Source: a virus. Taken from it: DNA of 64,000 bases. The notes beneath the pieces are model-generated. The model had not been told where the DNA came from, did no database searches, and worked only from the letters and a program-made list of their open reading frames with translations. The DNA is taken from the IMG/VR virus record IMGVR_UViG_3300037205_000062, positions 1 to 64,000 of that record; one strand, 5' to 3'. The position numbers and the translations under genes were made by a program. Shown piece by piece: positions 14,535 to 64,000 of the stretch (position 1 is its first letter; each line of letters begins with the position of its first letter).

Positions 14535-14858
14535 ATGGCATATCATAAATGGACACAAGAAGAACAGGATTTTTTAATTAAATATTATCCTACTTATAGA
14601 GGAAAATATTGTTCTCAAAAATTAAATATGTCTTGGAGACAAATCAATTCCAAAGCAGCTCTAATGAATTTAAAAATACAAGACGAGGAAGGTTATATAA
14701 TTTGCTCTAAATGTTATAATAAAAAACTAAATTCTGAATTTTATATAGATAAAAGATATGATATATCATTTAGGATTTGTAAGGAATGTTTTCATTACAC
14801 AAATCTTCAACCCTTATGGGCACAAGATAATTTAAAGAAAAGGGATAAAATAATATGA
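14535..14858 (+). pseudogene. internally deleted HNH/EndoVII-like homing endonuclease (ORF still open)
   Basis: WTQEE motif and Zn finger CSKC..CKEC joined directly to FHYTNLQPLWAQDN; no HIDH-type catalytic segment. Confidence 0.6.
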
Positions 14859-17062
14859 GTTTATTATCCCAAATAAAAGTCCGTCAAATTTCACAATCAG
14901 AATTAAGTGGTTTTGTAAGTGGCATGATTCCTGCCGTTTTATCAGGAACAGGATTACAAATAGGTGGCAATATTTCACCTACAATATCTAATGCTTATAG
15001 TTTAGGTTCCACTGGCTTATATTTTTCTAATCTTTACACGGATCAAATATCTATACCATCTGGCAGTGGAATTTATTTTGGTAATGTTCCATTTACAGCA
15101 TATATGTCAGGTGGAAATGGTATTGTAAGTATAAATGGTTTAACTATTTCTACTAATAGTTCGTTAGTGGGAATTGTGGGTCCGATTGGCCCATCTGGCT
15201 CAAAAGGAGCTACTGGAATTCAAGGAAATTCTGGTATTAGTATAACTGGTTATTCTAATTATAATAATTTATTAACTTTCTATTATTCTAATGGGACTTC
15301 TGGGAGCGGAATTCAATTACCTTCTGGTGCTACTGGAGCTACTGGAGCTTATACTACGGGATTTTTTCAAAGTGGAAATTATTTAAGTCCAACTTTTTCT
15401 AATGGTTCTACTGGTTCTTCTTTTTTTATTCCCAGTGGTGGAATTGGTCCCCAAGGTCCAGTTGGGAATATTTACATTAATATGCAAACCTTAACAGGTT
15501 TTGCTTCTGGTGATGTCACTCCCCAAGTTTATATACCAAATCTTTATCCGACTATTACAGAAAATCCTCCAATGAATTTAGTAAGAGGTATGGCCTATGG
15601 AATTGGTTATAGCGGCTTAGATACTTTAACTATTAGTGGAACAGGTACAAATTATTTTGTTGATGTTTATGGTTTAACAGGTTATTTACAATTAGTATTT
15701 TTTAATAGCGCCGCAACTCCTGGAAGATACCTTTCTGGAGAAAGTTTGTCGTCATATAGTACAATTTATGGTTTAATAGATAGTTCTATCTCAACTAATT
15801 TAACTACTAGTAATTACCTTAATTCCGTTTCTTTTAATACAGCATTTACTAGTAGCAATTCTTACTATTATGGTTTTCAAAGATATTCCTTATCAACTTT
15901 ATCTCCTATTGATGGAGTAACAATTCCTGGACAATGGGGATTCTATATTTTGGGGCCAGTTAGTTGTAATTTTTTCGGTCCTACTGGCGCACCTGGCTCT
16001 CAAGGTATAGCTGGAGTTCCTGGCCCTCAAGGTGAAATTGGCCCACAAGGAATAAATGGAAGCCAAGGAGTAGGTATAACTGGTGTATTAACTAACGGAA
16101 CTACTATTCAATTTCAATTTTCAGACGGAAGCGAAAGTCAAACTATAGTATTACCATCTGGTGGCCCAAGTGGCGCAATGGGATTAACTGGTCCTCAAGG
16201 ACCAAGTGGTTTACAAGGTATACAAGGACCAAGCGGTAATCAAGGATTTGCAGATACCTATGCTGCTCAATTTTATCCAAATACGATGACTATTTCAGGT
16301 TTTACTGGTTTTTATAAACAAATAAGTGGTATTGGTTCTTGGATTCAATGTACTGGTACTGGTGTAGTTATGCAGGTTGGTGACGCTATATGGTTTTCAG
16401 ACAATTCATTAGTTGGTAAAGCTTATACTCCTTGGCAAAGTGTTATTTTTGCAGATAATAATTATTATAATTCAAGATATTTTTATGCCAATGTTATTAC
16501 TTTTAATAATAATAATGGAACTATACAATGTGTAGTAAACAGCTCCCCAGCCCCAGCAGGTTTAGTTGGTGGTTATATTCAATTATATAATTATTCAATT
16601 GTGTCTGTTAATTTGGGTGGATTAGGTTCTTCTGGTGCGGTTGGACCACAAGGAATTCAGGGGGTTCCTGGAAACACAGGACATTCCATTTTTGTTGGTA
16701 CAGGATTTAATGTAGGAGGATATTCTACCACAAATATTTCAGGTAATAATTTTGATTCTTGGAATATAGGAATAGGTTATCCAGATAATACAATAAATAT
16801 AATAAGTTCCACTATTTCCACTGGACAAACAATAATAATTAGAGTACAAAATTCAGGAACTTATAGCGACTATTCAGATGGCATTAATCCTCTTTTATAC
16901 TGGTCGGTGGATAATGTAGGTTCTGTCAAATTCCCTAACAATGTTCCAGCCCCAGGGCCAAATCCAAACACAACCAGTATATATACTTTAGTTAGATTAT
17001 TAAATTTTACTGGTACGAATCCACTAATATATTGTACCTATAGTGTTAATTATCCTTTGTAA
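14855..17062 (+). CDS. collagen-repeat virion fibre protein
   Basis: Several (Gly-X-Y)n tracts such as GPTGAPGSQGIAGVPGPQG. Confidence 0.8.
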   Translation: MSLLSQIKVRQISQSELSGFVSGMIPAVLSGTGLQIGGNISPTISNAYSLGSTGLYFSNLYTDQISIPSGSGIYFGNVPFTAYMSGGNGIVSINGLTISTNSSLVGIVGPIGPSGSKGATGIQGNSGISITGYSNYNNLLTFYYSNGTSGSGIQLPSGATGATGAYTTGFFQSGNYLSPTFSNGSTGSSFFIPSGGIGPQGPVGNIYINMQTLTGFASGDVTPQVYIPNLYPTITENPPMNLVRGMAYGIGYSGLDTLTISGTGTNYFVDVYGLTGYLQLVFFNSAATPGRYLSGESLSSYSTIYGLIDSSISTNLTTSNYLNSVSFNTAFTSSNSYYYGFQRYSLSTLSPIDGVTIPGQWGFYILGPVSCNFFGPTGAPGSQGIAGVPGPQGEIGPQGINGSQGVGITGVLTNGTTIQFQFSDGSESQTIVLPSGGPSGAMGLTGPQGPSGLQGIQGPSGNQGFADTYAAQFYPNTMTISGFTGFYKQISGIGSWIQCTGTGVVMQVGDAIWFSDNSLVGKAYTPWQSVIFADNNYYNSRYFYANVITFNNNNGTIQCVVNSSPAPAGLVGGYIQLYNYSIVSVNLGGLGSSGAVGPQGIQGVPGNTGHSIFVGTGFNVGGYSTTNISGNNFDSWNIGIGYPDNTINIISSTISTGQTIIIRVQNSGTYSDYSDGINPLLYWSVDNVGSVKFPNNVPAPGPNPNTTSIYTLVRLLNFTGTNPLIYCTYSVNYPL

Positions 17063-20475: not shown

Positions 20476-22812
20476 ATGAAGGTAAATGTAAATAATAGTT
20501 TAGAGGGACAATTTAGAGTACAAATTTATAGTGGCAAAACTCTAGTAGAAGATACAGATTTTTTTAATAATTTCATAACCCCAACAGGTTTGTATTATCC
20601 AACTATTTATCCATTTGTAGATTGTTTTAGATTTTTATCATTGGGTACTGATACTTCAACACCAAATAGTGGAGCGGTATTAACTGGAGTGGGCGGTGTT
20701 ATAACTGGAAGTGGTATTGGAACTACTGGATTAGCTTCACCCATTGTTTCGTATGGTACTAACTATGGTCCGCAGTATGGGAATTATCTTGGATGGCAGG
20801 CATATGAAAATGGTTCTGATAATTCTCAATCCGCTTGTGGAACTTTATTAACCGAACAAGGACCAAGGTTTTATAGAGCATGGACAATCCCTACTGGCGG
20901 TGTACAATGTACTATTCAAAATGGAACTAATGGATTAGTCATTAATGAATTTATGGTATCTCCTTCTAGCGGAAGTGATCCTACTGGATGTTTTGCTTTT
21001 AGCCGTGTTAGAAGAACGGTAACGATTCCTAATGGTTATTCAGCAATTATTAGTTATCAACTTTCTATTAATAATCAAAATACTGGATTAACTTTTTTTA
21101 ATTCTGGAACTTTTACTACTGGAAATGCTGATGTAACAAGTAGTCCAGATGATTTGGGATTAGTTAGTGGATGGGGTATTTTATCAGGATATTATCGCCA
21201 AGTTTATCATGGCTTAAATGTTATTGACTCATTGGGAGCACATTTTACTCCTAGTTATGGATGTGGCATGGAACCATATTTAACAGATTTAAGTGATTAT
21301 TGTTTTTATCTTTCTCCAGATAATTCAGCTTTCGATGTTTCACAAACAGGAAATGTACAAGGAAGTTGGAGTGGCGCTTATCAAGCTGATGGTTTAATGA
21401 GTACAATTTTTGGTATTCCAATGACTTATCAAAATACTAGTTCGCCTTCTGATATGTTATTTTATGGACCAATTCCACCAGCTCAAAGCATATTAAATAT
21501 TGGGCAATCGAGTAATACTCCACAAAACATTAGAATTGGTAACGCTAATACTTTTCAAATACCAAGTGTAACTAACTATTCAACTGGAGAAAATTTTTCC
21601 CCATTTAATTATCAATCTGCTTATGATGCTACTCAAGAAGATATTTCTTTCGCTACTCCTGGAATTTTAGGATTTAATTCAAATAAAGTAAATTATTTAC
21701 AAGAAGCTGTATTCTCTACGAGAATATTTAGACAACCAATGGATTTAACTGGAGGCGTCCCTTTAAATCTTATTACTGGTAGAACCAAAACTATTACTCG
21801 TAAAACATTATTTTCTCCAGTGTCAAGTTTGGGTTATAATACAAGATTTGGTTCATTAGTTTTTGCTTCTAATTTAGCTCCTGGAAGTAATGATTCAAGT
21901 CAATATTGGCCAATGGTAGATACTTTATTTTATGATACTAGTGGTAGATCAACCATGCAACATTATAGACAAATAAAAGTAATTATGGATAATAGAGGAA
22001 CTGGTATTGCTGACTCTTATATTTGTATTACTCCAAGCGGACAAAATATTAGCAGATTTGCAAGTCGTAAAACTTATCAAGGCCCATATTCTACGGTAGA
22101 TGGTAATCCATTAGGATTTGATATTGATTCTACTTTAATGTCTGGAGCATCAAATGGATATACTGCTGCTTTGACTGCATCTACTTTTAATTATGTTGAT
22201 TTTCCTCTTAGTGGATATTCAGACCCCAACAATATAAGTGGTTCTGGGGTAGGAGATTTATTTTTTAATTTTAGTCCATTAACTGGATATAATTGTTCTG
22301 GTTTTGGAATGGTATATGGAGTTATAGCTGATGATAATACTTTTTATAATACTCCTTATGATTGTGGATTAGTTGATCATAATGTTACTGGCGGCCCGCA
22401 AGGTTTAAAAGTTACTCCAGTCCCTAATGCTACTGGTACGACTATCTATTGGCCAAATAAAAATTTTCCATTATCTTTACAAATAACAGGGATAAAATAT
22501 TTTTCTAATGGAACTTGTTTTGGTGGAGTAACTGTTCCAGTAGTTAGTGGGCAAACTGGATATAACTGGAGTACGAATCCTTGTCATTTTTGTCCGCCAA
22601 CTGGTCACATAGAACATTGGGAAGTTATTAATGGTAGTGGATATAGACTTTTACCCAACTCACAATATCCAAATAATGTAGGAAATAATTATTATAGTGC
22701 TAATTTAACAAGTGGAGGAAGTTTGCCAGGATTGTCGTTTGATAATGGATTAGAATTACTTATGCAAATTTCTTGGGGAGCGGGCTGCTCGGATGCGATA
22801 AATTGCTTATAA
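20476..22812 (+). CDS. virion structural protein (paralog of 22827..24362)
   Basis: Shares NFITxTGL..P..Y.F.DCFRF.SLG and other blocks with the next gene. Confidence 0.75.
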   Translation: MKVNVNNSLEGQFRVQIYSGKTLVEDTDFFNNFITPTGLYYPTIYPFVDCFRFLSLGTDTSTPNSGAVLTGVGGVITGSGIGTTGLASPIVSYGTNYGPQYGNYLGWQAYENGSDNSQSACGTLLTEQGPRFYRAWTIPTGGVQCTIQNGTNGLVINEFMVSPSSGSDPTGCFAFSRVRRTVTIPNGYSAIISYQLSINNQNTGLTFFNSGTFTTGNADVTSSPDDLGLVSGWGILSGYYRQVYHGLNVIDSLGAHFTPSYGCGMEPYLTDLSDYCFYLSPDNSAFDVSQTGNVQGSWSGAYQADGLMSTIFGIPMTYQNTSSPSDMLFYGPIPPAQSILNIGQSSNTPQNIRIGNANTFQIPSVTNYSTGENFSPFNYQSAYDATQEDISFATPGILGFNSNKVNYLQEAVFSTRIFRQPMDLTGGVPLNLITGRTKTITRKTLFSPVSSLGYNTRFGSLVFASNLAPGSNDSSQYWPMVDTLFYDTSGRSTMQHYRQIKVIMDNRGTGIADSYICITPSGQNISRFASRKTYQGPYSTVDGNPLGFDIDSTLMSGASNGYTAALTASTFNYVDFPLSGYSDPNNISGSGVGDLFFNFSPLTGYNCSGFGMVYGVIADDNTFYNTPYDCGLVDHNVTGGPQGLKVTPVPNATGTTIYWPNKNFPLSLQITGIKYFSNGTCFGGVTVPVVSGQTGYNWSTNPCHFCPPTGHIEHWEVINGSGYRLLPNSQYPNNVGNNYYSANLTSGGSLPGLSFDNGLELLMQISWGAGCSDAINCL

Positions 22813-22826: not shown

Positions 22827-24362
22827 ATGATTACTAGACATAATATAGCTTTACAAGGTTATTTTGATTATAAAATATATGATCAATTTGGAAATCTTAA
22901 AGAAGTCAAAACTGGTATTAAGAATTTTATTACTTCGACAGGTTTAACTTTTCCTTTTACATACGCTTTTGCTGATTGTTTCAGATTTATTTCATTAGGT
23001 TCAGGATTTAATCAAAATACTATATTAGGTTCTTATGGTGGAACTACTGGATTATCATCAGGTATTCAAGAATTTACTTATATTGGAAGTCGAACTTCTT
23101 TTAGTGATCCTACTACTTCTAATTATGAAAATCCTGGGTGTGGTTACACAGAAAGTTTGGGGCAACTTACTTTAAGTAGAAGTTTTAAAATTCCAAGTGG
23201 ATCGGGTACATTTGATAATAATTATATTTTTAATGAATTAATGTTAAGTCCAGGTCGTCCCACTGGTATGATGGGTACTTGTGGTTGTGGTGGCCAAGAT
23301 ACAAGTAATGGAGGAGTTGACGCTTCTATTATAGCTGATTATTACGATAGTATCTCTAGCCCATCTATTTGTAGTGCTCATCAAGCATTTACAAGAATTA
23401 TTTTATCTCCATCAATATCAGTAAATACAAGGGATTATTTAGTTGTTAATTACAATTTAAATATTATATATGATAGTGGAGTAGATTTATTCGCAACATT
23501 AATAAATAATAATTTTTCATCTTATTGGACTGGTTATATATCTGGGCGTTCAAATATTATTCATCACGGATTAAAATTAATCAATGATGGAGGTATTATA
23601 GATCAATCTTCATATAGAAATCAAGCATCACCATTTGGAGAAAACTACGATTGGATTGATGAATATGGTGAATCATATATTCCATTATGGGGTGCGCCAC
23701 TTGAGCCTTCTTGTCCCGCTATGAATTTAGTTTCTTATTTATCTACTGATAATGTTCAATTTTTAGTAAATCAAGTGAGTGGCGGTGCAATAGATATTGG
23801 AAATTGGCAGCCTTATAATCCAACTGGTTATCCTGCATCAAGCGGATTAAAAGCATTTGTTCCAAAACCATCAGATACTACTGATGCTAGTAATTTTAAT
23901 ATTAGAACAACATTAACTGGTCCATTATGGCCAGCGCAAACAGGTGTTTTCGCACAAGCTATATCTTATCCAGATGGAACTAATTATATTTTACATAGTT
24001 CTTTTGGCAAACAAAAAATTAGTTTTATACCTAGTGGGCGTAGTAGAAGTTCTCTTTATTCATGCGTATTTACAAATCTTAACGCATTTAATTGGTTGAA
24101 TGGTACTTCGCCAACTCCATTAGTAAGATCAATGATTTATAATTATGCAGATGCTAATGCTATTAGTAATAATACTTATTATCCATTTTTAGATTTATTA
24201 TTTTCTGGTACTCAAGGAGAAGGATTAGTTCCAACTGGTTCTGATACTTCGTATTCTAATCCTACTAATAATTATTATCCATTAGGAAATGGCGGAGATT
24301 TATCCATTGCGATGTCTTTAACTTGGTCATCTATTTGTAATTCTGGAGTGATAGGATGTTAA
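22827..24362 (+). CDS. virion structural protein (paralog of 20476..22812)
   Basis: Same conserved blocks, Cys-rich. Confidence 0.75.
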   Translation: MITRHNIALQGYFDYKIYDQFGNLKEVKTGIKNFITSTGLTFPFTYAFADCFRFISLGSGFNQNTILGSYGGTTGLSSGIQEFTYIGSRTSFSDPTTSNYENPGCGYTESLGQLTLSRSFKIPSGSGTFDNNYIFNELMLSPGRPTGMMGTCGCGGQDTSNGGVDASIIADYYDSISSPSICSAHQAFTRIILSPSISVNTRDYLVVNYNLNIIYDSGVDLFATLINNNFSSYWTGYISGRSNIIHHGLKLINDGGIIDQSSYRNQASPFGENYDWIDEYGESYIPLWGAPLEPSCPAMNLVSYLSTDNVQFLVNQVSGGAIDIGNWQPYNPTGYPASSGLKAFVPKPSDTTDASNFNIRTTLTGPLWPAQTGVFAQAISYPDGTNYILHSSFGKQKISFIPSGRSRSSLYSCVFTNLNAFNWLNGTSPTPLVRSMIYNYADANAISNNTYYPFLDLLFSGTQGEGLVPTGSDTSYSNPTNNYYPLGNGGDLSIAMSLTWSSICNSGVIGC

Positions 24363-28658: not shown

Positions 28659-30650
28659 ATGTTCGATAACCTTATTAAGTTATACCAGTTAGAAACTTCT
28701 GAACTTTCAGGATTTATAGTTGAATTAATAGATGATTTTATTTTAACTACTGGAGTTACATATAATACATATATTAATTCTGGCGCTGTTTTAACTGGAC
28801 AAACTGGTAATTTCATTGATATAAACCACTTAAATTCTACAGTTGCTTCAATTAATTTACAAAATAGTTTTACTTATTATCCTCTAACTAATCCAAGTGG
28901 ATTTATCACAACTGGTTATCTTTCTGGGGCATTAGCTAATTTTAGTGGAGGAAGTGGTGGAAACATTAACACAGGAAATTTTGTTACCACAGGGCAAACT
29001 GGAGTTTTTATTACTACGGGAAAGTTTCCAGATTTAATAGATGTCAGTCAAAAAATAGGAATAAATACACTTACCCCTCAATATCAATTAGATATATATG
29101 GAACACCCAATGCTGTTATCGGTAATAGTAATGGGGATATATGTCTTGTAGGTTCTAATAATGGAGTAGGCATTAATCAAATAAATCCTCAATATACATT
29201 AGATGTTGGTGGGGAAGGTAATTTTGGAACTAATATTTTAATTAGCGGAATATCTATTTACGATATATTTTATCCATATTCTTCGAATCCATCTGGATAC
29301 ATTAAATCATTAAATACTGTTTCAGTTACAAGCGGTATAGTTTTTATAACTGGTTCTCCATATCCCTTTGGATTATTTAGTGTTAATATCCCTGAACAAT
29401 CTGTATTATTAGGAGATTCTATAGGCTCGGTAAACGAAACTTATCTTGATATAAGTGATTATAGTCAAAATATTCAAATTAATGCTAACAATGGTGTTCA
29501 AATACAAGTTGGTTCTCCTGGGGTAACTATTAATGGTTCTAAAATAATTGTCGCTAATCAAACTGGGGCATTTTATCCTAACATAGGAAATCCAAGCGGA
29601 TTTATATTACCAAGTCAAACTGGAAGATTTGTAACTACTGGACAAACTGGCGCTTTTTCTTCAGTAGCATCTTTACAAAGTTTATCGGGATATATATTTA
29701 ATTTTAATCCATGGTTGGTTTATACTACTGGCGCGCAAACTATTTCGGGTGCTAAAACTTTTGTTTCTCCATTTAATGTTCATCTATCTGGCGGACATTT
29801 ACAATTAGATAATTCTAATTTTGCACTATTAGATCAAAATAATGTATCGTCAGTAAATATTAATACTAGAAATTCAATAGACGCAAACGGTGTACCTTCT
29901 ATAGATTGGACTAATAGATATTTACGAGATTATACTTCTTTAGCTTCTTTAGATTGGAATAACAGATTGTTATTAGACAATAATTTAATTAGTTCTATAA
30001 ATTGGGATAACAGATTGTTATTAGATAATTTTGGAAATATTTCTATAGATTGGAAAAATAAAATTTTATCAGGTAATTGGTTAATTCAGTCAGCTACAAT
30101 TCTTTCTGGAGTAAATGGTGGTGGCACAGGATCATTTGGTTTTATAACTGGATTATTTAATATAAGTGGTGCCAGTGGCATTTCTGTTTATAATACTGGT
30201 AATACTATTGTTATTAATTATACTGGTAATAATAGTGTATTTGGAAATTTTAATATTACTGGTATTCAAGGAATTACTGTAGCAGCTTCGGGTCAAAATA
30301 TTATTATCGGAAATACGGGTGGTGGAGTATTTGGAAATTTTTCAGTTATAGGAAATGATAATTTATATGTGTCTGGTTCTGGTCAAAATATTTATATAGG
30401 AGAAAATATAGGAACTCGTTCTACTGGATTTTATACTATTTTACCTAGTGGAATTAATAATACTGGTATAATATTTAGTCATAACATTCCTAGTCAACCA
30501 GTTTGTTGTATATGCGATATAGAAAATAATATAGATAATTCTACATACCAACACTTCATAAATAGTGTAAGTACAAGTGGATTTAATATATATTTTTCTG
30601 ACCTTTTGTTTGTGTCTGGATACAGATTACATACGATGGTTATGTGGTAA
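28659..30650 (+). CDS. virion fibre/spike protein
   Basis: IGIN..PQY.LD repeats, NPSGFI/TGQTG repeats, 16-aa SIDWxNRLL repeats, lectin-like C-terminal domain. Confidence 0.75.
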   Translation: MFDNLIKLYQLETSELSGFIVELIDDFILTTGVTYNTYINSGAVLTGQTGNFIDINHLNSTVASINLQNSFTYYPLTNPSGFITTGYLSGALANFSGGSGGNINTGNFVTTGQTGVFITTGKFPDLIDVSQKIGINTLTPQYQLDIYGTPNAVIGNSNGDICLVGSNNGVGINQINPQYTLDVGGEGNFGTNILISGISIYDIFYPYSSNPSGYIKSLNTVSVTSGIVFITGSPYPFGLFSVNIPEQSVLLGDSIGSVNETYLDISDYSQNIQINANNGVQIQVGSPGVTINGSKIIVANQTGAFYPNIGNPSGFILPSQTGRFVTTGQTGAFSSVASLQSLSGYIFNFNPWLVYTTGAQTISGAKTFVSPFNVHLSGGHLQLDNSNFALLDQNNVSSVNINTRNSIDANGVPSIDWTNRYLRDYTSLASLDWNNRLLLDNNLISSINWDNRLLLDNFGNISIDWKNKILSGNWLIQSATILSGVNGGGTGSFGFITGLFNISGASGISVYNTGNTIVINYTGNNSVFGNFNITGIQGITVAASGQNIIIGNTGGGVFGNFSVIGNDNLYVSGSGQNIYIGENIGTRSTGFYTILPSGINNTGIIFSHNIPSQPVCCICDIENNIDNSTYQHFINSVSTSGFNIYFSDLLFVSGYRLHTMVMW

Positions 30651-34093: not shown

Positions 34094-34103
34094 TATATAA
34101 TTT

Positions 34104-36209: not shown

Positions 36210-36222
36210 TAATTACATTTTT

Positions 36223-36229: not shown

Positions 36230-36236
36230 TATATTT

Positions 36237-42246: not shown

Positions 42247-42247
42247 C

Positions 42248-53895: not shown

Positions 53896-55584
53896 ATGTC
53901 ATTTAACTTAGAAGGTATAAGTACAGGATTATTGGGTTATTCATTAAGGAAGGAATTTTTTAGTGATTCTATTCCTTATAGAGAGGTAGAAACATTCAAT
54001 TTTGAATTTTATTCGACTGATATTTCTGGGTTAAGTCCATATAATATTCAAACAAATATCTACAATTATTTTACTGGTATTTATAGCGGAAATATTGATT
54101 GTAAAATTTTTGGAATCCCTACGGAATTTCAGTTTCCATCTGATAATATTAGAACAACTAAATTTGATGTTTCCGTAGAAGTTAGACGTGTACCATCTAA
54201 TCTAACTGGATATACTGAACTTAACACTTCAACTTATTCAGGATTAAATTATAGTTTTTTTTCAGGATATTCTACTTACTTATTAGATTTCAAGGAAGAT
54301 TTTACTTTTGATCAAAATGAAAATGGACATCAATCATTTAATCATACAGTATCATTTGGTTTAATTACGGGTGGGAAAACGGCAGCAATGCAAATTATTT
54401 CTGGTATTTTTGGAAATGATTTTCGTACTCCATTTGGTTTATCGGTGTTTATTAGTGGCATTAGTGGAGCAAATCCAGCAAATGTACAAAATTATTATAC
54501 TGAAAGTTATGATTTAATAAAAAATAGTTATTCATTTAATAAAAAAAGAGATTTTTATCCCAGTGACGCAACTACATTTACATATAATCTTATTCATTCC
54601 ATGAGTTTACAAGCAAATGGAGTATTTGATATTACTGAAAAATGCGATTTACAAGGTAAAGTAAGTTTTTTACAAGCAACTCAAGGATTAAATTTATTAT
54701 ATAATAATTCAATATCAAGATGTACTGATTTTTATAATATGTATAATTCTGCTATAGCCCAACCTGGAGAACCAAATTCCATTGCTCCATTATCTATTAC
54801 TCCCAGAAAATATGTTCAAACTTATAATATACCAAGTTTATCGGCTTCTTATGAAATTACATATACTAATGATCCAGAATTTCAGAATGGAGGTGATAGT
54901 GAAGAAGAAATTATTGAATTAAATGTAGATGAAAAAAATATTGTTACAATTACGGATAAATACACATTTACTTTTAATAAAAGAAATCTTAATTTCCAAG
55001 GCGCTTATGCATTATTAACTGGAGCATTTACTACATCTCCTTCGGCTATATCTGGATATTATGCACAAAGTTGTTTTTATCAACCCTCTTGGCCAATTAA
55101 TATGATAAAAATGGATATAACATGGCCATATAATAAACATCAATCAACTATTGATTTATCTTATTCTAATAATCCTCGTTTTGATGTAACCATTAATAAT
55201 GTCTTATTCAAGTCTTTGGATTATACTATTACTAATTTAGTACCAGTTGATATTGTTCAAGAATATAAGATAATAAATAGGCCAAATAAGTTAAGTGTAT
55301 TAAATTATGCGTATCAAAGCGAAAAAGGAGCCATAACTGTTAATATAAACGCTGGTATTGGTCGTCAAACTAATGAATTTGTGACTGGTTTTAGAACTGA
55401 TATTGCTACATATTTATTAGCCCTGTATCAATATTCAATTACTTTATTTTGGCAACAATTTAGTAATGTATTACCGATTAGTTTTACATATTTTCTATCA
55501 GATATTAAGTATAATATGAATAATGATGGGTCATTAAATATGAATGTACAATTTACATATACATACAAAAAATATCTTGCTTAA
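53896..55584 (+). CDS. baseplate/distal tail protein
   Basis: Follows TMP; F.FDQNENG..S..H.VS block shared with the next gene. Confidence 0.65.
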   Translation: MSFNLEGISTGLLGYSLRKEFFSDSIPYREVETFNFEFYSTDISGLSPYNIQTNIYNYFTGIYSGNIDCKIFGIPTEFQFPSDNIRTTKFDVSVEVRRVPSNLTGYTELNTSTYSGLNYSFFSGYSTYLLDFKEDFTFDQNENGHQSFNHTVSFGLITGGKTAAMQIISGIFGNDFRTPFGLSVFISGISGANPANVQNYYTESYDLIKNSYSFNKKRDFYPSDATTFTYNLIHSMSLQANGVFDITEKCDLQGKVSFLQATQGLNLLYNNSISRCTDFYNMYNSAIAQPGEPNSIAPLSITPRKYVQTYNIPSLSASYEITYTNDPEFQNGGDSEEEIIELNVDEKNIVTITDKYTFTFNKRNLNFQGAYALLTGAFTTSPSAISGYYAQSCFYQPSWPINMIKMDITWPYNKHQSTIDLSYSNNPRFDVTINNVLFKSLDYTITNLVPVDIVQEYKIINRPNKLSVLNYAYQSEKGAITVNINAGIGRQTNEFVTGFRTDIATYLLALYQYSITLFWQQFSNVLPISFTYFLSDIKYNMNNDGSLNMNVQFTYTYKKYLA

Positions 55585-55586
55585 TT

Positions 55587-57227
55587 ATGAGTAATCAAAT
55601 TTCAGTAGTATATAACGGAAATGTTCTTTATCCAGTTCCATTTGTAACGCAAGACTATAAATTTATTGATTATAATGGTAATCGCTGGGGTAACGTATTA
55701 GAAATTACCCTTAATGGTATTTTAAGTGGAATTAATTCTACTGGAAATGTCGCCCAAATTACCAATATTTTTGCCACACAATTTGGTAATCTTCAGGTTT
55801 ATCAAGGTAATCCTTTAAGCGGGGCATCTGGAACTTTAATTTATAATTGGCCAAATGTTATTATTAATGAAATTTCATTTCCTCAATCTCATTATTATGG
55901 AACAACTGCTATTCCATATGTTATAAAGGCTCATAGTTTTAATGTTCCAAGTGGTGTAACCGATCCCTCAAATCAATATTCGTTTACACAAAATGAAGAT
56001 GGAACAGTAGATGTTTCTCATCAAATATCAGCCAAAGGAATAAGAAATTCTACAAGCGCATTAAATAATGCTGTTAATTTTGTACAACAATTTACGGGAA
56101 AACAACCCTTTCAAAATTGTGCTACACAATTTGTTCCAAGTGGGAGCGGTCTTCTTATTAGTTTAAATGAAAAAATTGATAGGGCAAATGGAGCTTATAT
56201 GGTTACTGAACAATATAAGTATTCAACTGGTTTTTCTACTCCATATACTCAAATATCAGATTTAACTATTAATGACTCATTAGATCAAACTTATCTTTTA
56301 ATTGATTATAATGTTAAATTTAAGGGTTCGCCTGTTTATAATAATATTTCAGCTTTGAATCTAGCTATTGCTAGTGGTTTTAATGAAATGAATGATATTT
56401 CTGGATTTGGAGTGGCAAGTGGATTATTGGTTCAAATTACATCGGAAATTATAAGAAATAGTGGAGATGCTTCGATTGAAGTTAAATACTCTTATTATTC
56501 AGGTTATACGTTAGCAGATTTAACTGGATTTTTTGATTATAATGTAACATTGAAAAAGGATTTAATTATACCAAAAGAAACTTGGGAAGTTAAGGGTGAA
56601 TATACTTGTCGTGGGCCAATTATTTATAGACTTCAACAATTAAATGCTTTCAAACAAACTTGTAGTGGAAATTATAGAAATATGTTATTAGGTTTAATTA
56701 GTGGCGCTCCAATTTGGACTGGTTTTCATACAAGTGGGAATTTATTATCTAACAATGCAATAGTCTCAATTAATGAAAATACTGGTATGGCAACTTTTGA
56801 AGCTTCTTTAACAGTTGATGATGGAGCTGATCCTACGAGTTTAGCTAATTCAAGATATGAAATACAAATGCAACCTGGAAAATGGGAATTTGAATTGATG
56901 CCCGCCGCAAATATTGAAGGGCATTATATAGTTCAAGATTTACAGATGCAAAGTCAAAGTAAAATAAATATATCTTTATCTGCTGTATCTCAATTTCCAG
57001 CTAGTGGATTACCAATTTTATCTGGATATTTAAGTCAATTATCAGGTATATATCTTAAAAGTGGTTTTATGATTGAATCGCAATATCAAACAGGCATTAA
57101 TGATTTGTCTTGCGAATCTCATTTTATAGGTCAAGATAATTTTAATACAGGATTATTAAATATTAAGATGGTTGGTAGCAATAACTTTAACTTTGTAAGA
57201 TCATCGGGTTTTTCATTCGGATACTAA
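55587..57227 (+). CDS. baseplate/distal tail protein
   Basis: YSFTQNEDGTVDVSHQISA block; beta-rich. Confidence 0.65.
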   Translation: MSNQISVVYNGNVLYPVPFVTQDYKFIDYNGNRWGNVLEITLNGILSGINSTGNVAQITNIFATQFGNLQVYQGNPLSGASGTLIYNWPNVIINEISFPQSHYYGTTAIPYVIKAHSFNVPSGVTDPSNQYSFTQNEDGTVDVSHQISAKGIRNSTSALNNAVNFVQQFTGKQPFQNCATQFVPSGSGLLISLNEKIDRANGAYMVTEQYKYSTGFSTPYTQISDLTINDSLDQTYLLIDYNVKFKGSPVYNNISALNLAIASGFNEMNDISGFGVASGLLVQITSEIIRNSGDASIEVKYSYYSGYTLADLTGFFDYNVTLKKDLIIPKETWEVKGEYTCRGPIIYRLQQLNAFKQTCSGNYRNMLLGLISGAPIWTGFHTSGNLLSNNAIVSINENTGMATFEASLTVDDGADPTSLANSRYEIQMQPGKWEFELMPAANIEGHYIVQDLQMQSQSKINISLSAVSQFPASGLPILSGYLSQLSGIYLKSGFMIESQYQTGINDLSCESHFIGQDNFNTGLLNIKMVGSNNFNFVRSSGFSFGY

Positions 57228-57295: not shown

Positions 57296-57318
57296 GTGTA
57301 ATCTATCTTGGTAAAAGG
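57296..57318 (+). promoter_or_regulatory. GTGTAAT late promoter plus TTGGTAAAAGG leader
   Basis: Same arrangement as 44812-44834. Confidence 0.6.
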
Positions 57319-57319
57319 T

Positions 57320-59362
57320 ATGAATTTAAACAGTTTTCTTACTTGCCTGAATGTTAATGGAATTGTTAGTGGAAATTCCATTCAAGGCGTTTATACCTTC
57401 TCTAGCGGAGATTCTAATCTTATTTATAATAATTTGTATCCTACTGGAAATATGTATTATAGTGGTTTGGTATCTACTATTAGTTACCCACTAATAAATG
57501 TAGGTCAACCAATATCAAATTCATATTTTAGTGGTACTCAACTTTTTAGAATAGGATATACTTCTTCAGGAGACTTTGGTTTATTGTTAGATATTCAATA
57601 TGATAGTTGTTCTAAACAAAATTTAGTTGATTATTGTTTATTATCCTCAAATACTCTTAATAATTCTGGTAAAAATTTTACACTGACCATTAATGATGCT
57701 AATAGATTAACTTTAAAAACAAGTGGCGGATATTATTCAACAGTATCTCAAGAATTGACGGAGCATGATTTAGTTTATTTTAGCATGGCTCAACATCAAT
57801 ATTTAACTTTTGGTGTATTTAATGTTGCTAATAATTATTTTTATAGTAATCAAATTAATTTAGGTGGGCCAATTCTTAATTCGGATATAGTTTATATAGG
57901 TGGCGAATTTAATAATTTTACTTCTACAGGATTCTTTGGTACTATTAATAATGCGGTATTATTTTGTCAGGCTCCATCTAATCTTAATATATGTGTTAAT
58001 TGTTATTTAACTACTGGTTATATTATCAATAGTAATACCCAAACTGTAAATGTGCCACAAATTACTGGATTTTTTTATTCTGGTATTCAAACTAGTTATC
58101 AAACTACTGGAATCGCTTCTGGTATTATTTCAAAAGTAAATGGTGGAACTATTAATTTGGAATTTGGAACAGCATCTACTTCTGGAATAACAAGTGGTTT
58201 ATTAGTTTCGGCATTATATGGAACTACGGGTTTGAACATTAGTCAACCTTCTTATCAATTTTTTCAAGATACTGGTATTGTTAATACTTATAATAAATTT
58301 GAATTAGCATTTGGAACTTCTTTACAATCAGGAGACGCTCTTGAAATTTATACATATTATTATCCAATACCTAATATTGGAACACAATTAATTGGTTTTG
58401 AAGTACCAGCTAATAGTGGCATAATGCAGTTAATAGTAAATGGTGTTGATGAAACTCTTAATGTTGATTATACCATTGTTAGAAATCAAGTAAGTGGTTT
58501 TTATTCTAACGATGTTTTAGCTTTTGACAGTTTAAATTCTCAATCAGTAATAGTTAATTTTAGCGGTGTTTTTAACAATATTTTTACTGGAAGTTCTGGG
58601 GTAAATTCAATATTAAATGTAACTGGTTTAAGTGGTGTTTGTTATAGTAATACTTATTATCCTAGTTTTGGATATGATATTTTCTTAAATGGGCAAAAAC
58701 TTATTTCAGGATATGAATATGGTATACAAACAACTGGAGTTTCTGGATTTAGTGTTAATATTTCGGGTGTAGAAATTTTAAATCCTACTAATAATGGTAT
58801 TGATAATGCTGAATTGGGATTTATACCTCAATTTAATAATATTATTTATTTTTTGAGTGGAGTCACTCAAACTACTCAAACGGTAACTGGAATAGCTGGA
58901 TTTTCTGAACAAGTATGGGTTAATGGTGTTAGGCAAATAAGAAATATTGATTATTTTATTTATAATCCGTGTTCGACGGTAAGTGGATTAAATAATATAA
59001 ATTTACCATTTAAATTTTATAATAATGATCAAGTGGCATGGAACTTTAACTATCCTCCAATAATTTTAAATTATTCTGGATATTTACAGACTGGTAATGG
59101 AAATTTAAGTGGATTTTATTCTTGGTCAAACATAAACAGTGGTATTTTTATTAGTGGAATTTATCCTTCTGGATCATTTATAGAAATTTGGGCTAACTAT
59201 AATAGTGGATTATTTAATTTAATAAATAATATTGATGTGTTATCAACTGGATTTTCTTATAATATAGGTGTGCCAATTCACGGAGTTTATGGTATTCAGA
59301 CACGTTATCATAGTGGAAATTTAATTGGAGATTTTAGTAGTGGATATTATATAAGTTATTAA
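57320..59362 (+). CDS. tail/baseplate structural protein (LamG-like N-terminal part, NGV...DY repeats)
   Basis: YIGG...FFGTIN motif and three (V/L)NG....(D/E)Y units; ATG 57320 after AAGG. Confidence 0.65.
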   Translation: MNLNSFLTCLNVNGIVSGNSIQGVYTFSSGDSNLIYNNLYPTGNMYYSGLVSTISYPLINVGQPISNSYFSGTQLFRIGYTSSGDFGLLLDIQYDSCSKQNLVDYCLLSSNTLNNSGKNFTLTINDANRLTLKTSGGYYSTVSQELTEHDLVYFSMAQHQYLTFGVFNVANNYFYSNQINLGGPILNSDIVYIGGEFNNFTSTGFFGTINNAVLFCQAPSNLNICVNCYLTTGYIINSNTQTVNVPQITGFFYSGIQTSYQTTGIASGIISKVNGGTINLEFGTASTSGITSGLLVSALYGTTGLNISQPSYQFFQDTGIVNTYNKFELAFGTSLQSGDALEIYTYYYPIPNIGTQLIGFEVPANSGIMQLIVNGVDETLNVDYTIVRNQVSGFYSNDVLAFDSLNSQSVIVNFSGVFNNIFTGSSGVNSILNVTGLSGVCYSNTYYPSFGYDIFLNGQKLISGYEYGIQTTGVSGFSVNISGVEILNPTNNGIDNAELGFIPQFNNIIYFLSGVTQTTQTVTGIAGFSEQVWVNGVRQIRNIDYFIYNPCSTVSGLNNINLPFKFYNNDQVAWNFNYPPIILNYSGYLQTGNGNLSGFYSWSNINSGIFISGIYPSGSFIEIWANYNSGLFNLINNIDVLSTGFSYNIGVPIHGVYGIQTRYHSGNLIGDFSSGYYISY

Positions 59363-59392: not shown

Positions 59393-62300
59393 TTGGAAAG
59401 GAGAAGTATAATTATCGGATACCAACTTTTACAAGGAATAGTAGTAACACCTTTAGGTTCTCGTAACCAATCAAGATTTAGTTCGTCATTAGTAAATGGG
59501 TCTTGGCCAACAAGTTTTGCATTTGGAGGTTGGATATATTCATCTTCTGTAGAAATAGGATTTAGTGAAAAACCCACAGAAATTAAATTAGGTATAGTTC
59601 TTGAAGTTGTAAATAAATCTCAACAATATGCCTTCTTTAATATTACAGATGATGATCTTCGGGCTGATGCTGGTAATGGAGGTCAAGAAAGTTTATATAA
59701 TTTAAATATTAATGGGGTTTTATTTAACAATTTTATTTTATATGAATATGAAATTTCTATCGAAAATAATGCGAAAATTTTAACCGTTATTTTCAAAGAT
59801 TATTCGGTGATTTTAGATAAAATTTATATTGGGCTTCTAAAAAGACAGGGTAATACATTTACTCATACAGCCAATTCTCAATTAGTTTTTAACATAAAAT
59901 GTTCTGATTGCGTACTAGCTGGTGATACATTTACTCAATTAGGTTATGCTAACAGAGATATAGCTTTTTGTTCCTATGTTGGTATAAACGGACAGGTATA
60001 TGATAATTTTATTAATTCAAATCCTAATTTAGATATATTTTCTCAATGGAGTAATCTTTTTGCTCAACAAACAAAACCATTTTCTAATACTTTTGATTTA
60101 AATGGTGGTTATTTAATTATAGGAACAGAAGAGGCTACAGATGAACGTTGTGGTAATTTTGCTCAAGTGGGGTATAATTTTAATGAATTATTAGCTTCTT
60201 TAAGATTAAGAGGATTTAATTTTATCGGCGCTTTTCCTTATGGTCAAACTGATTCTGATTTTGTTTACAAACAAAACTATAATGGTACTTTAAGAGAAGT
60301 ATTACAACAATGGTGTTCGGACTTAGGTTATTCATATTATTGTGATGGAAAAAATTTTGTAGGTATAAGTTTAATATATCCATTAGATATTTCGGCTGTT
60401 ACCTCAATTGCTGATCCAACTACAACATTAGGTTCACAATTTTCGCTTGGAACTAATACAGCTATTCTTTCCTATAAATCTAATTCAACGTTAGATAATA
60501 CTTTTACTCAATCGGTTATTTGTGAAAATAATCGTGTTAGAAATGCTACAACTGATAGCAAAACACCAAAAAGATATGTTGGTATTCTTCCATTACATCC
60601 TATTGATTTTAATATTCGTAACCAATCGCCTGTATTAAGAGTTAATGCTTTAGGCGCTCCCTTTATTGATATTGGATGGTCTTATTCTTTTGAACCAAAT
60701 AGTCCTACACTTAATAACACTTTTTTCTTATTGGACAATAGAACATTTGATCACGTAGATACGGCCATTGCTCTTGGTAAATATAATGCTGATTTAAGAG
60801 ATATTTTTTGTCAAGATCAAGCTATATATGGAGCTACTCAAGAAATTAGATCATCTAATTTTAGAGCATTGGGTATGGTGCCATTAATTGAAGTCACTGG
60901 CGAAGAAATGTCATTTGCTATTGAGTCACTCATTCCAACAGCTAAGGATGAAATTTCTAATATTTGTGTGGATAAAAGATTTTATAGAGTTTATATTGGT
61001 TATTATTATCCAGAACTTAAACAGGATACTATCCAATGGGAACAAACAGCAGCAGAGACAATGTATCAATATGGTATAGTTTCGGAAGGTTTATTAGATT
61101 ATTTTCCATATATGCCTCAAAGTTCTTTAACTGATGAAAGTCCTACTGGTGGTTTTTATGGAGAAAGTGGGACTTCATTATTGAGAATTCAACATTCGTA
61201 TGAACCTTCATGTCAACAATATTATCAATTAAGAGATGCTCCATTTAAAGACGTAATTCTTTTTTCTGGTTTAGAAGTATCAACAAATAATGTCACTGTT
61301 AATGCTATTACTGATCCTAATGGAAATCAATTAACACAAAATAATTTAGGTGTTAATATTCCAGTATTTTTACCTACGGGTGATGTATTTCCTGGTGGAT
61401 TATTTTTTGGAGAAATAACTAATTCATGGGGTACTGATCCTTCTGAATTCAATAGAGTTATGTCATTAAATTTAACTGATCCTTGTGTATCTGAATTCTC
61501 ACAAGATCAAAGTTATACAAATATTGTTAATGGAAATACTTATAACAGATTTCAAGATTGGAGATTAGAATTATTTCGTCCACAAGTTACTTCTGATATT
61601 GATTCATTTTATGCTTATTACGAGCCTCAATTAAAGCAAATTCAACCAGTATATAATACAAATGGTGGTAATGTAACTGGTAGCATTATTGATAGAACTG
61701 TTGGTACTTATTATAATTTTAAATACAAACAAAATGCTTTTTGTTCTAAACTTCATATTATGGTATTAACTGATACTAGAAATCATCCTAATATTCAAGT
61801 GAATTTTAATAAATATGGCACTGAATTTGTTAATCCTATTGTATTAACTCAATGGGTAGATAAAGAAAGACAAGCTATTTTAAGAAGAGATCAAACTGAA
61901 ACATTAAGTATTTGCGCTATATCTTTATTACAAGAAATGTGCGATAATATTATTTCTGGTATATACCACGCTGGAACAGGTGATCCAAGGTATCGTTGTA
62001 TTATTGATGAAAATAAATATAATTTCTTAGAAGAAGGTTATCCACTTACTGATTTACTCATTCCTAATTCTAGGGGTCTTAACGTAAATATTATAAAAAA
62101 TCCTTTAAGAAATAATAATATTGATGCTTTACAAGCTACATTCCAAAATGCTGATATTAATGGAGATTTTTATTATTCAGATGTATCTTCAAATTTATTA
62201 ACCTCAACTCAGGCCCAAGCTAGTATGAATATTATTTATCCAGTTTCATTTGGTTCACAAGCTAACTATAGAGGAATTTTGACTTCTCAAGTAGATGTTG

Positions 62301-62755
62301 AAAATCGTATCCCAGAAATTATTAATATTCTTGGAACCCCTACTAATATTACTAATAATAGAGCTGCCACTATTAAAGTTATTAATGAGGTTATTGATCC
62401 TGATCTACAACCACAACTTGATCCATATTTACAAAGATTTGTACCATATTTTACTGTAATTACTGGAACTGGAAATGTGATTACTACACCCGATCAATAT
62501 TATAATTTTATTTCACAACTTAATAGTTATCAATTAACTGGAGCATTTAAGTCAGTCGAATTAAGTTTGGCTGGAACGCCTGATACATTTGGTAATTTTA
62601 GCCAATATTTATCTCCTAATTATGGATTAAATAAAATGAGTATTAATGTAGGCGATAATGGAGTAACTACTTCTTTGTCGTTTAGTGATAGACCACGTAT
62701 CCTACCTAAACAAGAAAGTATACTTAATAAAATTATTACAAGAATAGCACCATAA
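59393..62755 (+). CDS. baseplate hub / tail tip protein
   Basis: 1120-aa ORF with GTLREVLQQWCSDLGYSYY hub-like motif; start codon uncertain (no early ATG). Confidence 0.7.
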   Translation: MERRSIIIGYQLLQGIVVTPLGSRNQSRFSSSLVNGSWPTSFAFGGWIYSSSVEIGFSEKPTEIKLGIVLEVVNKSQQYAFFNITDDDLRADAGNGGQESLYNLNINGVLFNNFILYEYEISIENNAKILTVIFKDYSVILDKIYIGLLKRQGNTFTHTANSQLVFNIKCSDCVLAGDTFTQLGYANRDIAFCSYVGINGQVYDNFINSNPNLDIFSQWSNLFAQQTKPFSNTFDLNGGYLIIGTEEATDERCGNFAQVGYNFNELLASLRLRGFNFIGAFPYGQTDSDFVYKQNYNGTLREVLQQWCSDLGYSYYCDGKNFVGISLIYPLDISAVTSIADPTTTLGSQFSLGTNTAILSYKSNSTLDNTFTQSVICENNRVRNATTDSKTPKRYVGILPLHPIDFNIRNQSPVLRVNALGAPFIDIGWSYSFEPNSPTLNNTFFLLDNRTFDHVDTAIALGKYNADLRDIFCQDQAIYGATQEIRSSNFRALGMVPLIEVTGEEMSFAIESLIPTAKDEISNICVDKRFYRVYIGYYYPELKQDTIQWEQTAAETMYQYGIVSEGLLDYFPYMPQSSLTDESPTGGFYGESGTSLLRIQHSYEPSCQQYYQLRDAPFKDVILFSGLEVSTNNVTVNAITDPNGNQLTQNNLGVNIPVFLPTGDVFPGGLFFGEITNSWGTDPSEFNRVMSLNLTDPCVSEFSQDQSYTNIVNGNTYNRFQDWRLELFRPQVTSDIDSFYAYYEPQLKQIQPVYNTNGGNVTGSIIDRTVGTYYNFKYKQNAFCSKLHIMVLTDTRNHPNIQVNFNKYGTEFVNPIVLTQWVDKERQAILRRDQTETLSICAISLLQEMCDNIISGIYHAGTGDPRYRCIIDENKYNFLEEGYPLTDLLIPNSRGLNVNIIKNPLRNNNIDALQATFQNADINGDFYYSDVSSNLLTSTQAQASMNIIYPVSFGSQANYRGILTSQVDVENRIPEIINILGTPTNITNNRAATIKVINEVIDPDLQPQLDPYLQRFVPYFTVITGTGNVITTPDQYYNFISQLNSYQLTGAFKSVELSLAGTPDTFGNFSQYLSPNYGLNKMSINVGDNGVTTSLSFSDRPRILPKQESILNKIITRIAP

Positions 62756-64000
62756 TGTTACAATTATCAGGAAATAATCAATTAAAGATTCCAGAAGCAA
62801 ATCCATTTGGTTTTGTTTTTAATTCTATATCTGTATTAACTACTGGAGTTTCATCTATTTCATTTGCTAACGCTTCTGGTACTAGTATATCATTTATTTT
62901 ATCTGGTCAAAATATTTATCTAAAAAGTTCTGGAATTAATAAATGTATATCGTCTTATAATACTGGACAAAGTTTTAGTTTAAGTGGTACTTATTTATCT
63001 GGTAATAGTGGATATTATTTTATGGATTTTTATGTTAGAGATTTGCATATAAATTCTTGGCAAGAGTTATTACCTTCAAATCTTTTTTTATTAAATATTA
63101 ATGTAGCTAGTGGAGACTTATTAAATATAGATGCTCAAATGTATTGTAATACAATAAATTCATCTTTAAATTTACCATTTTCTTATGAAGCTTTTTCTAA
63201 TTTTACTGGGAATATAATTACTAATACAAATTATTGGATTTTAGGTTCTAATACTACTTATATAAATTCATATCAATCTTTATTAAGTATAGATAATATA
63301 ATCGCCCCAGTAAAAACAACATTGCCATTAATCTTAAACATAAATGATTTAGACAATAGTTATCAAGATTATCAAGTAAAATCGCAATCTTATCTTACTA
63401 CTAATATTGGAAGTTCAGTCTTAACTGGTAATATTTATAGAAGTGGTAATGAAGAAAATATTTTAGATACATTTGAATTACTAAATACCACTAGTAATAT
63501 ATCAGGATTATTTAACGGAATTTGGAGTGGGGAAACTTTTATTTATAGTGATTTTCCTGAGTATTTAACTTTAAATTTTGAATTTAGCGAAATGAATATT
63601 AGCGGTATTTATTCAACTAATCAAAATATATTTATTAATTTTCAACCATATTTACCATTAAATAATCAAACTTATTATAGTGAATATATTACAGGATTTG
63701 TTTTAACTAATTCGGGTAATTATGTTAATCCTCCAACAGTAATGTTTAATAATTATTATTTTACTACTGGAATGACTCAACAATGGGCCACAATGCTTTT
63801 TAGTAGTGGGTGTAGCGGGAATATTCCATTTTATACTACTGGAGGTGGTGGAACTGGCGCTTCTGGTATAATCCAAGTTTTACCAGTAACCTTATCAAAT
63901 CTTTATGTGGTAGGAAATGCTATATATAATATAGTTACAGGAACATCAATGTACAGTTCTGGAACTAATTATACTGGAATTCCTAATATCATTATACAAA
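62755..64000 (+). CDS. tail structural protein, partial (runs off the window)
   Basis: ATG overlaps the previous TAA; open in the segments read by hand, including the window end; GGGGTGASG...SGTNYT..P motifs. Confidence 0.75.
   Translation, partial: MLQLSGNNQLKIPEANPFGFVFNSISVLTTGVSSISFANASGTSISFILSGQNIYLKSSGINKCISSYNTGQSFSLSGTYLSGNSGYYFMDFYVRDLHINSWQELLPSNLFLLNINVASGDLLNIDAQMYCNTINSSLNLPFSYEAFSNFTGNIITNTNYWILGSNTTYINSYQSLLSIDNIIAPVKTTLPLILNINDLDNSYQDYQVKSQSYLTTNIGSSVLTGNIYRSGNEENILDTFELLNTTSNISGLFNGIWSGETFIYSDFPEYLTLNFEFSEMNISGIYSTNQNIFINFQPYLPLNNQTYYSEYITGFVLTNSGNYVNPPTVMFNNYYFTTGMTQQWATMLFSSGCSGNIPFYTTGGGGTGASGIIQVLPVTLSNLYVVGNAIYNIVTGTSMYSSGTNYTGIPNIIIQ

Follow-up and report, generated by a model that had tools for sequence, protein, structure and literature searches.

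IMGVR_UViG_3300037205_000062 is a single viral contig of 162,911 bp with a G+C content of 31%, typed as linear by IMG/VR and estimated by CheckV to be 79% complete. Its source is an uncultured phage; the terminase and the other proteins tried have no close match among 50,697 GenBank phage records. The first 64 kb of the contig (positions 1 to 64,000, the whole stretch of DNA analysed here and referred to as the window) encode an intein-split large terminase, a tape-measure protein and a long series of large open reading frames (ORFs), for which almost no matches are found in Pfam or PHROGs. Thirteen of the window ORFs encode proteins with very few charged residues in which Gly is preceded by Ser or Thr far more often than expected. 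We describe this excess of Ser-Gly and Thr-Gly pairs (written [S/T]-G), which the original prediction had read as a convergent sequon for virion glycosylation, together with a pair of glycosyltransferase genes that lies shortly beyond the end of the window.

Expected counts and z scores were obtained from shuffles of each protein, and a local test from shuffles inside blocks of 15 residues. ORFs were classed as low-charge where Lys, Glu and Arg together (K+E+R) make up no more than 12% of residues, giving 26 such ORFs for comparison with 125 of normal charge. The enriched set comprises 14 proteins, namely 13 window ORFs (one of which continues to 64680) and the ORF at 76624-81453. The features concerned are given below, with the number of [S/T]-G pairs observed against that expected; 'reverse' denotes pairs in the order G-[S/T].

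11364-14504: large terminase (TerL), 1046 residues, interrupted by an intein with a LAGLIDADG domain
14855..17062, plus strand: low-charge protein of 735 residues, K+E+R 2%; 47 against 25.4, z 5.4, reverse 22
20476..22812, plus strand: low-charge protein of 778 residues; 37 against 18.5, z 5.1
22827..24362, plus strand: low-charge protein of 511 residues; 20 against 11.0, z 3.4
28659..30650, plus strand: low-charge protein of 663 residues with a strong excess; 45 against 15.9, z 9.0, reverse 12
30657..32258, plus strand: low-charge protein of 533 residues with a modest excess; 20 against 12.5, z 2.5
32264..35864, plus strand: two low-charge proteins of 609 and 586 residues with signal-peptide-like N-termini and no excess, serving as an internal control
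35892..36839, plus strand: two small low-charge proteins of 105 and 200 residues; 6 against 2.1 and 9 against 3.7, z 3.3 each
36847..40461, plus strand: fibre-like protein of 1204 residues with the strongest excess; 131 against 46.3, z 16.2, reverse 27
42236..43087, plus strand: protein of 283 residues; 7 against 2.9, z 2.8, reverse 0
46987-53889: tape-measure protein (PF10145, 5.7e-33)
53896..55584, plus strand: protein of 562 residues encoded directly after the tape-measure gene; 14 against 6.2, z 3.5, reverse 1
55587..57227, plus strand: low-charge protein of 546 residues with a strong excess; 27 against 8.3, z 7.5, reverse 6
57308..59362, plus strand: all-beta protein of 684 residues, the reference case; 43 against 14.5, z 8.8, reverse 9
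59393..62755, plus strand: virion-module protein of 1120 residues without excess, a control; 11 against 11.9, z -0.3
62755..64000 and on to 64680, plus strand: low-charge protein of 641 residues with a strong excess; 27 against 7.7, z 8.4 for the part in the window, and 45 against 13.2, z 9.7 for the whole
76624-81453: further enriched ORF beyond the window, z 8.2

Across the 14 enriched proteins there are 502 [S/T]-G pairs against 146 in the reverse order (binomial p 1.3e-46), Ser or Thr precedes 52% of all Gly, and the block shuffles return a z of 24.6. The per-protein z ranges from 2.5 to 16.2 over the 13 window ORFs. When the 26 low-charge ORFs are taken together, the ratio to expectation is 2.00 for SG (z 12.5) and 2.17 for TG (z 13.3), values that nothing else among the 400 dipeptides approaches, as against 0.75 for GS and 0.92 for GT; in the 125 normal-charge ORFs SG stands at 1.07 and TG at 0.99. 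K+E+R amounts to 1-8% of the enriched proteins and to 14-29% of the others, an extreme being ORF 36847, in which about 1.5% of residues are ionisable (approximately 18 of 1204; D 0.5, E 0.2, K 0.3, R 0.3 and H 0.2%). Spacing between sites shows a mild peak at 5-6 residues and is otherwise irregular, and the pairs Asp-Gly and Asn-Gly (DG and NG) together occur at 0.64 of expectation. Low charge is a trait of many virion-module proteins and of the two with signal-peptide-like N-termini, and the excess marks a subset of this class, its distribution being two-peaked; the capsid protein candidate (ORF 26951) shows no enrichment. The directional bias and the poverty in Lys, Glu and Arg asserted in the original prediction are thereby borne out. 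Its hand counts for ORF 57308 (43 SG/TG, 9 GS/GT and 76 Gly) proved exact, the low counts that it gave for TerL (4), gp9509 (1) and the putative portal (8) were reproduced, and most of the ORFs that it listed are enriched, 43826 being the one to be struck out (8 against 6.9 expected, z 0.5).

A signal of this kind can hardly be explained as an artefact, whether of composition, of hidden repeats, of pressure from codons or DNA motifs, or of mis-called frames, and that reading is already contradicted by the controls. Two features might have favoured it: ORF 36847, built of repeated NPSGF(I/L) and (S)QTG(A/I/N)F motifs, supplies 131 sites on its own, and codons of the form NNT are preferred before GGN. 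Composition, including local patches rich in Ser, Thr and Gly, was rejected on the reverse dipeptides, which are not enriched, and on the block shuffles. Hidden repeats were rejected since only 36847 is repetitive and the signal persists without it (371 forward against 119 reverse, z 18.9). At the level of DNA, the Ser codons before Gly are 50% AGY and 50% TCN, and the choice of Gly codon is unchanged. Furthermore, the tetranucleotide CCGG is absent from the whole genome, window included (0 against 123 expected), so that TCC-GGN and ACC-GGN are barred and this constraint on DNA, the one strong constraint found, opposes the pair; a DNA-level cause was rejected on these grounds. The existence of conserved homologues and of a folded model, described below, likewise speaks against artefact.

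Common descent does not explain the shared habit either. BLASTP among the 26 low-charge proteins finds only five related pairs, so the excess arose in many unrelated proteins, in agreement with the statement of the original prediction that the pattern fills non-homologous proteins. Kinship was noted between the N-terminal part of 20476 and 22827 (8e-13) and between 35892 and 36237 (2.5e-23), and 28659 has short modules in common with 36847, 36237 and 35892. Nor is the excess a by-product of low charge, for the phage has seven further low-charge proteins with a total of 76 forward and 83 reverse pairs and a DG/NG ratio of 0.93, i.e. no avoidance; low charge and richness in Ser, Thr and Gly do not therefore create it. 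The two proteins at 32264 and 34104 carry 8 pairs against 9.7 expected (z -0.6) and 16 against 14.5 (z 0.5) respectively. Their N-termini combine a basic start, a hydrophobic core and ends of the VYA-A and VIA-S type. They may be exported, depolymerase-like proteins and not parts of the particle. A generic trait of phage fibres or beta-helix adhesins was also rejected: phage T4 gp34-37, gp12, gp10 and wac show no [S/T]-G excess (z -1.7 to +0.7), while the passenger of the beta-helix adhesin Ag43 of E. coli K-12 has 9 SG against 5.9 expected and an excess of D/N-G instead. DG and NG together are mildly enriched in T4 gp34 and gp37. Motifs resembling the sortase signals LPXTG and NPXTG, and cleavage sites of the N-to-O acyl-shift type, were considered and dropped because spacing and direction do not fit.

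The habit is kept in relatives. Thirty-two metagenome homologues of ORF 57308 were found, and all 30 of the aligned sequences of this family (query included) contain 32-50 [S/T]-G pairs against 9-17 expected, approximately a 3-fold excess, at a K+E+R of 4-12%. Ser and Thr before Gly are conserved at 0.64, compared with 0.43 for other Ser and Thr, and on average 57% of the query sites are kept. In homologues of about 35% identity half of the sites lie at other columns, and sites private to a homologue number 407 against 211 expected (1.9x); density is thus maintained while positions turn over. On a broader scale, 18 of 20 related IMG/VR loci, with G+C contents of 29-48%, have low-charge ORFs with [S/T]-G ratios of 1.9-3.5, and the other two have no low-charge ORF at all.

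The positions of the pairs were considered on a model of ORF 57308 (predicted local distance difference test, pLDDT, 69), which is almost entirely beta, with an N-terminal domain of the LamG/ConA-like jelly-roll fold that matches structural proteins of phages, those of the baseplate and minor tail among them. The pairs lie mostly 1-4 residues from the start or end of a strand. They are preceded by Pro, Leu, Ile or Val, Pro being 1.9-2.1-fold enriched in a weak but consistent context, and the Gly is followed by a hydrophobic residue and then by Ile or Leu at alternate positions. Judging from this one model and the alignment statistics, the pairs appear to form the last two residues of tight turns entering beta-strands, with the pattern phi/P-[S/T]-G-phi-x-phi-x-phi, and the site features fit a tight turn with Gly in the left-handed conformation. 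The same material places the sites at strand edges with Pro at i+1, Asx, Ser or Thr at i+2, and Gly or Asn at i+3, as in a type I turn with a G1 bulge.

Pfam scans in three batches, each listing its top 25 families, covered approximately 135 ORFs that do not belong to the structural run; together with searches of the remaining genome, they bear on the second part of the argument. As the original prediction had said, there is no glycosyltransferase among the scanned ORFs of the window; the first such genes lie 3.6 kb past its end, and the search of the remaining genome that it had proposed yields GT4, GT9-lobe and GT17 proteins, a dehydratase, a nucleotidyltransferase and methyltransferases. 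Two of these genes form a pair between the enriched ORFs 62755-64680 and 76624-81453, on the opposite strand to both:

67632-68819, minus strand: GT9-like ORF of 395 residues (PF01075, 32.6 bits against a cut-off of 22)
68810-70831, minus strand: GT4-type ORF of 673 residues, overlapping upstream partner (assigned from viral GT4-type clusters)

The GT9-like match also appears in a six-frame search (33.8 bits). By sequence, the only match of the two proteins in the PDB is a weak one of the GT9-like family profile to 1PSW (1.7e-4). The model of the GT9-like protein is of high confidence (pLDDT 91.8), and its residues 1-188 superpose on 3TOV and 1PSW with a Z of 17.1 and a root-mean-square deviation of 3.0-3.2 over 171-176 residues, and on WaaC and TibC with Z of about 16 and 15.2. 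By its modelled fold this segment is the donor-binding C-lobe of the heptosyltransferases, the nearest solved folds being those of lipopolysaccharide heptosyltransferases and TibC; the signature G-x-D-S-x-x-x-H-x-A is kept in the consensus of 14 sequences of the family. The C-terminal 200 residues form a second alpha/beta domain, and the model contains no beta-barrel ahead of the Rossmann lobe. The 673-residue protein has an invariant CxxC...CxxC arrangement (C289, C292, C307 and C310) and a DUF4214 domain. Its match to PF00534 (16.5 bits) is under the cut-off of 26.4; its nearest Atlas clusters are viral and carry PF00534 on 27-100% of members, and its structural TM score to GT4 clusters is 0.50-0.54. 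A C-terminal stretch, R-V-L-x-V-x-P-E-S-A-G-D, with an invariant D564, resembles the opening of a GT9 acceptor lobe; this stretch has no clear match in the PDB by sequence. From these sequence features the GT4 and GT9-lobe proteins look like a split, two-chain glycosyltransferase.

Both genes are present and adjacent in 16 of 17 related contigs, with proteins 33-55% identical. The absence of modifying enzymes, which the original prediction had named as telling against it, is contradicted by the enzymes that this genome encodes. The seventeenth contig still shows the excess; it is a fragment estimated to be 34% complete and hence decides nothing as a natural negative control. A distance of 7-8 kb separates the GT9-like gene from the homologue of 57308 in the five relatives checked. 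The GT9-like family has at least 805 metagenome members, on contigs of up to 221 kb, with no functional name at source beyond the GT9 label, and the protein has no match among the GenBank phage records searched with the terminase. A search for further relatives with TerL returned mostly short contigs, useless for judging the presence or absence of the enzymes.

Further along the contig, an island at 95-106 kb encodes an NDP-sugar 4,6-dehydratase (2e-65), a nucleotidyltransferase, a sugar C-methyltransferase, three FkbM methyltransferases, a RuBisCO-like protein and GT17, as well as a Methyltransf_24 protein with a weak match of the rhamnosyl O-methyltransferase type. The RuBisCO large-subunit-like protein (PF00016, 2e-33; 97514-98719, minus strand) is encoded between an FkbM methyltransferase and the nucleotidyltransferase.

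Taken together, these observations allow a tentative case, in our view a little short of probable, that the turn loops carrying [S/T]-G are acceptor sites for glycosylation. The pairs would end tight turns entering strands in beta-rich, nearly charge-free proteins of the outer virion, and the protruding hydroxyl-Gly loops would serve as acceptors for the phage-encoded GT4 and GT9 donor-lobe pair. The activity of the enzymes would be cytoplasmic and directed at virion proteins already folded or in the course of folding, in the manner of TibC and Aah on autotransporter adhesins, and GT17 and the products of the NDP-6-deoxy-sugar and methyltransferase island might then extend the first sugar into a dense, neutral glycan coat. 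We infer both that the enzymes modify these proteins and that they do so at these positions. Such a reading would explain the habit shared by the 14 proteins, the density maintained through turnover of sites, and the conserved glycosyltransferase pair among the virion genes. A more specific version, in which a widespread clade of uncultured phages of approximately 100-220 kb hyperglycosylates near-non-ionic beta-proteins at hundreds of [S/T]-G loops by means of a two-chain GT4/split-GT9 enzyme, we regard as possible and rather doubtful; if true, the fibres, baseplate periphery and head decorations of these phages would bear a proteoglycan-like neutral coat, by a sequence rule readable from genomes.

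The closest known system is that of the bacterial autotransporter heptosyltransferases (BAHT; TibC and Aah), whose substrates are TibA, AIDA-I and Ag43. TibC, an enzyme of the GT9 fold, works in the cytoplasm, where it adds heptose to Ser in short loops of the folded beta-helix of TibA; of two sites mapped there one is N-S-G-G, and TibC and Aah modify Ser only (Yao et al. 2014, PMC4358343). The phage genes resemble this system in the GT9-type donor lobe with its structural match to TibC, and in an enzyme gene that neighbours those of large, beta-rich surface proteins; the autotransporter substrate has many Ser sites in short inter-strand loops, and the reaction is cytoplasmic. They differ in that the phage protein is a donor lobe joined to an unrelated domain of 200 residues and paired with a GT4 protein, in that the pair is known from sequence and a model, and in that the K-12 Ag43 passenger itself has no Ser-Gly excess. 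Virion glycosylation is known in mycobacteriophages such as Che8 and its relatives (PMC11256854, PMC12582341), where glycans are reported on major capsid proteins (PMC11256854). Glycosyltransferases encoded by the phage, and a glycan shield proposed for virion proteins, are common to both cases; the present one differs in that the candidates are a dozen fibre, baseplate and decoration proteins, with the capsid candidate not enriched. We know of no dipeptide rule in mycobacteriophage virion glycosylation.

The Ser-Gly xylosylation sequon of proteoglycans, to which the original prediction had likened the pairs, requires acidic neighbours. The order Ser then Gly is common to both; around the phage pairs, acidic residues are depleted. 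Between -4 and +5 most positions have fewer Asp and Glu than background, Asp standing at 0.4-0.7 of it at most of these, although at -1 it is not among the most depleted residues. No xylosyltransferase-type family occurs among the families listed in the Pfam scans. A proteoglycan-type sequon was accordingly rejected for want of the acidic context, and the analogy fails. No paper was found that reports a Ser/Thr-Gly rule for phage proteins, or a heptosyltransferase-type enzyme acting on phage fibres.

Several observations, concerning the enzymes and the sites themselves, weigh against glycosylation. The GT9-like ORF begins at the C-lobe, and the acceptor N-lobe with its catalytic Asp is absent from the chain; the family has no conserved Cys quartet, and the protein lacks the features that define BAHT, namely the Cys4 iron finger, the N-terminal beta-barrel and the single chain. 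In contrast to the Ser specificity of TibC and Aah, Thr is as enriched as Ser in the phage proteins. The pair could have host lipopolysaccharide, the capsid or other Ser or Thr residues as its target. Accessory sugar genes are not retained clade-wide, GT17 being present in 2 of 17 relatives, and no relative without the enzymes was found for use as a natural negative control. As to the sites, in the 57308 model a position just before a strand is only slightly commoner for Gly that follow Ser or Thr (14 of 37) than for other Gly (8 of 29). Where the Gly is kept and Ser or Thr is lost, Asn is the chief substitute (3.4-fold), and where Ser or Thr is kept, the residues standing in for Gly are Asn, Ser or Gln. 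Eleven of the best-conserved sites admit only Ser or only Thr, and this points to a structural cause. Finally, the classical consensus of the type I turn is N-P-D-G, with Gly at i+3 (the G1 bulge), and the repeated NPSG of 36847 is its uncharged twin. Pro at i+1, a side chain at i+2 that forms hydrogen bonds, Gly at i+3 and a strand thereafter are common to both; the phage proteins differ in that Asp and Asn are depleted before Gly (0.64), and in that Ser or Thr stands before half of the Gly in one protein class only.

The pairs might thus be a structural habit only, an explanation that we consider a serious possibility and would stop short of calling probable. Ser-Gly and Thr-Gly would replace the turn formers Asp-Gly and Asn-Gly in proteins nearly without charge, the hydroxyl capping the backbone (an ST-turn for an Asx-turn) and the Gly being left-handed before the next strand; avoidance of Asn-Gly and Asp-Gly would remove bonds prone to deamidation or isomerisation from a long-lived particle, and the glycosyltransferases would serve another purpose. 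The modelled strand-edge positions, the substitution by Asn at both columns, the Pro before the pair and the alternating hydrophobic residues after it, and the strict identity of 11 of the best-conserved sites all favour this, as does the shortage of DG and NG in the enriched proteins, set beside their enrichment in Ag43 and, mildly, in T4 gp34 and gp37. However, the seven other low-charge proteins have no such habit and do not avoid DG or NG, and the two among them with signal-peptide-like N-termini would face the same environment. In ORF 57308, Asp, Asn, Ser and Thr together precede Gly at no less than 1.7x expectation (a lower bound, DG and NG in this protein being left uncounted), compared with about 1.2 in T4 gp37, which indicates more than a redistribution among turn formers. 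The sharing of the habit by fourteen mostly unrelated proteins, the density kept through turnover, and a glycosyltransferase pair that is conserved like the best virion genes, and among them, would also go unexplained.

An improbable third explanation is that another trans-acting factor reads the pairs, adding a phosphate, an acyl group or a methylated sugar, or acting as a fibre chaperone or assembly factor. A common factor of some kind is suggested by the class-specific distribution with its two peaks, there are many methyltransferases and unassigned genes near the module, and the C-terminal alpha/beta domain of the GT9-like protein is itself unassigned; against this, no kinase, acyltransferase or dedicated chaperone family occurs among the families listed for the scanned ORFs, and we know of no precedent for a factor that reads such [S/T]-G loops.

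Glycosylation and a structural role cannot be told apart by sequence; both survive, and they are not mutually exclusive. The original prediction is supported in so far as the bias is directional, arises at the protein level, is convergent across mostly non-homologous proteins and is confined to one class of virion proteins, and is left undecided in that a beta-turn preference is nearly as likely an explanation. Should the pairs accept sugars, glycosylated virions would be widespread among large environmental phages and not a mycobacteriophage curiosity, the dipeptide signature would predict targets from sequence alone, and in the enzyme pair the autotransporter heptosyltransferases would have a new relative made of two chains. 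If they are structural only, they represent an uncommon route to stable beta-proteins that nearly do without charged residues. Under either reading the signature splits the virion proteins into two sharp classes.

Some further features of the window proteins were noted. ORF 14855 is flanked by the genes for the terminase and the putative portal and contains a collagen-like Gly-X-Y stretch at residues 375-405 (Pfam Collagen, 7.6e-8). It shares with 28659 the N-terminal motif Q/E-x-S-E-L-S-G-F (window positions 14855-14950 and 28659-28750), the two having no other kinship by BLASTP; the motif may be a common attachment segment. ORF 30657 has a weak GDSL-lipase-like match (PF13472, 2.5e-4, below the cut-off), and one of the proteins at 32264 and 34104 weakly matches an endosialidase N-terminal extension. 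The intein of TerL, with its LAGLIDADG homing endonuclease, occupies approximately residues 136-508 (Pfam Intein_splicing and LAGLIDADG_3). In relatives the terminase is of about 606 residues and aligns across query residues 1-1043, and the 'helicase' matches returned by tblastn with TerL in Listeria and Bacillus phages are probably to related inteins.

The missing CCGG has wider consequences for the coding sequence: because of it there are no TCC or ACC codons before Gly, and the dipeptides Pro-Gly and Gly-Pro are scarce in all proteins of the genome (ratios 0.29-0.51). GATC (0.43), CCNGG (0.36) and GGNCC (0.57) are also depleted genome-wide, which, with the absence of CCGG, suggests avoidance of restriction. 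GCGC is 2.5-fold over-represented across the genome.

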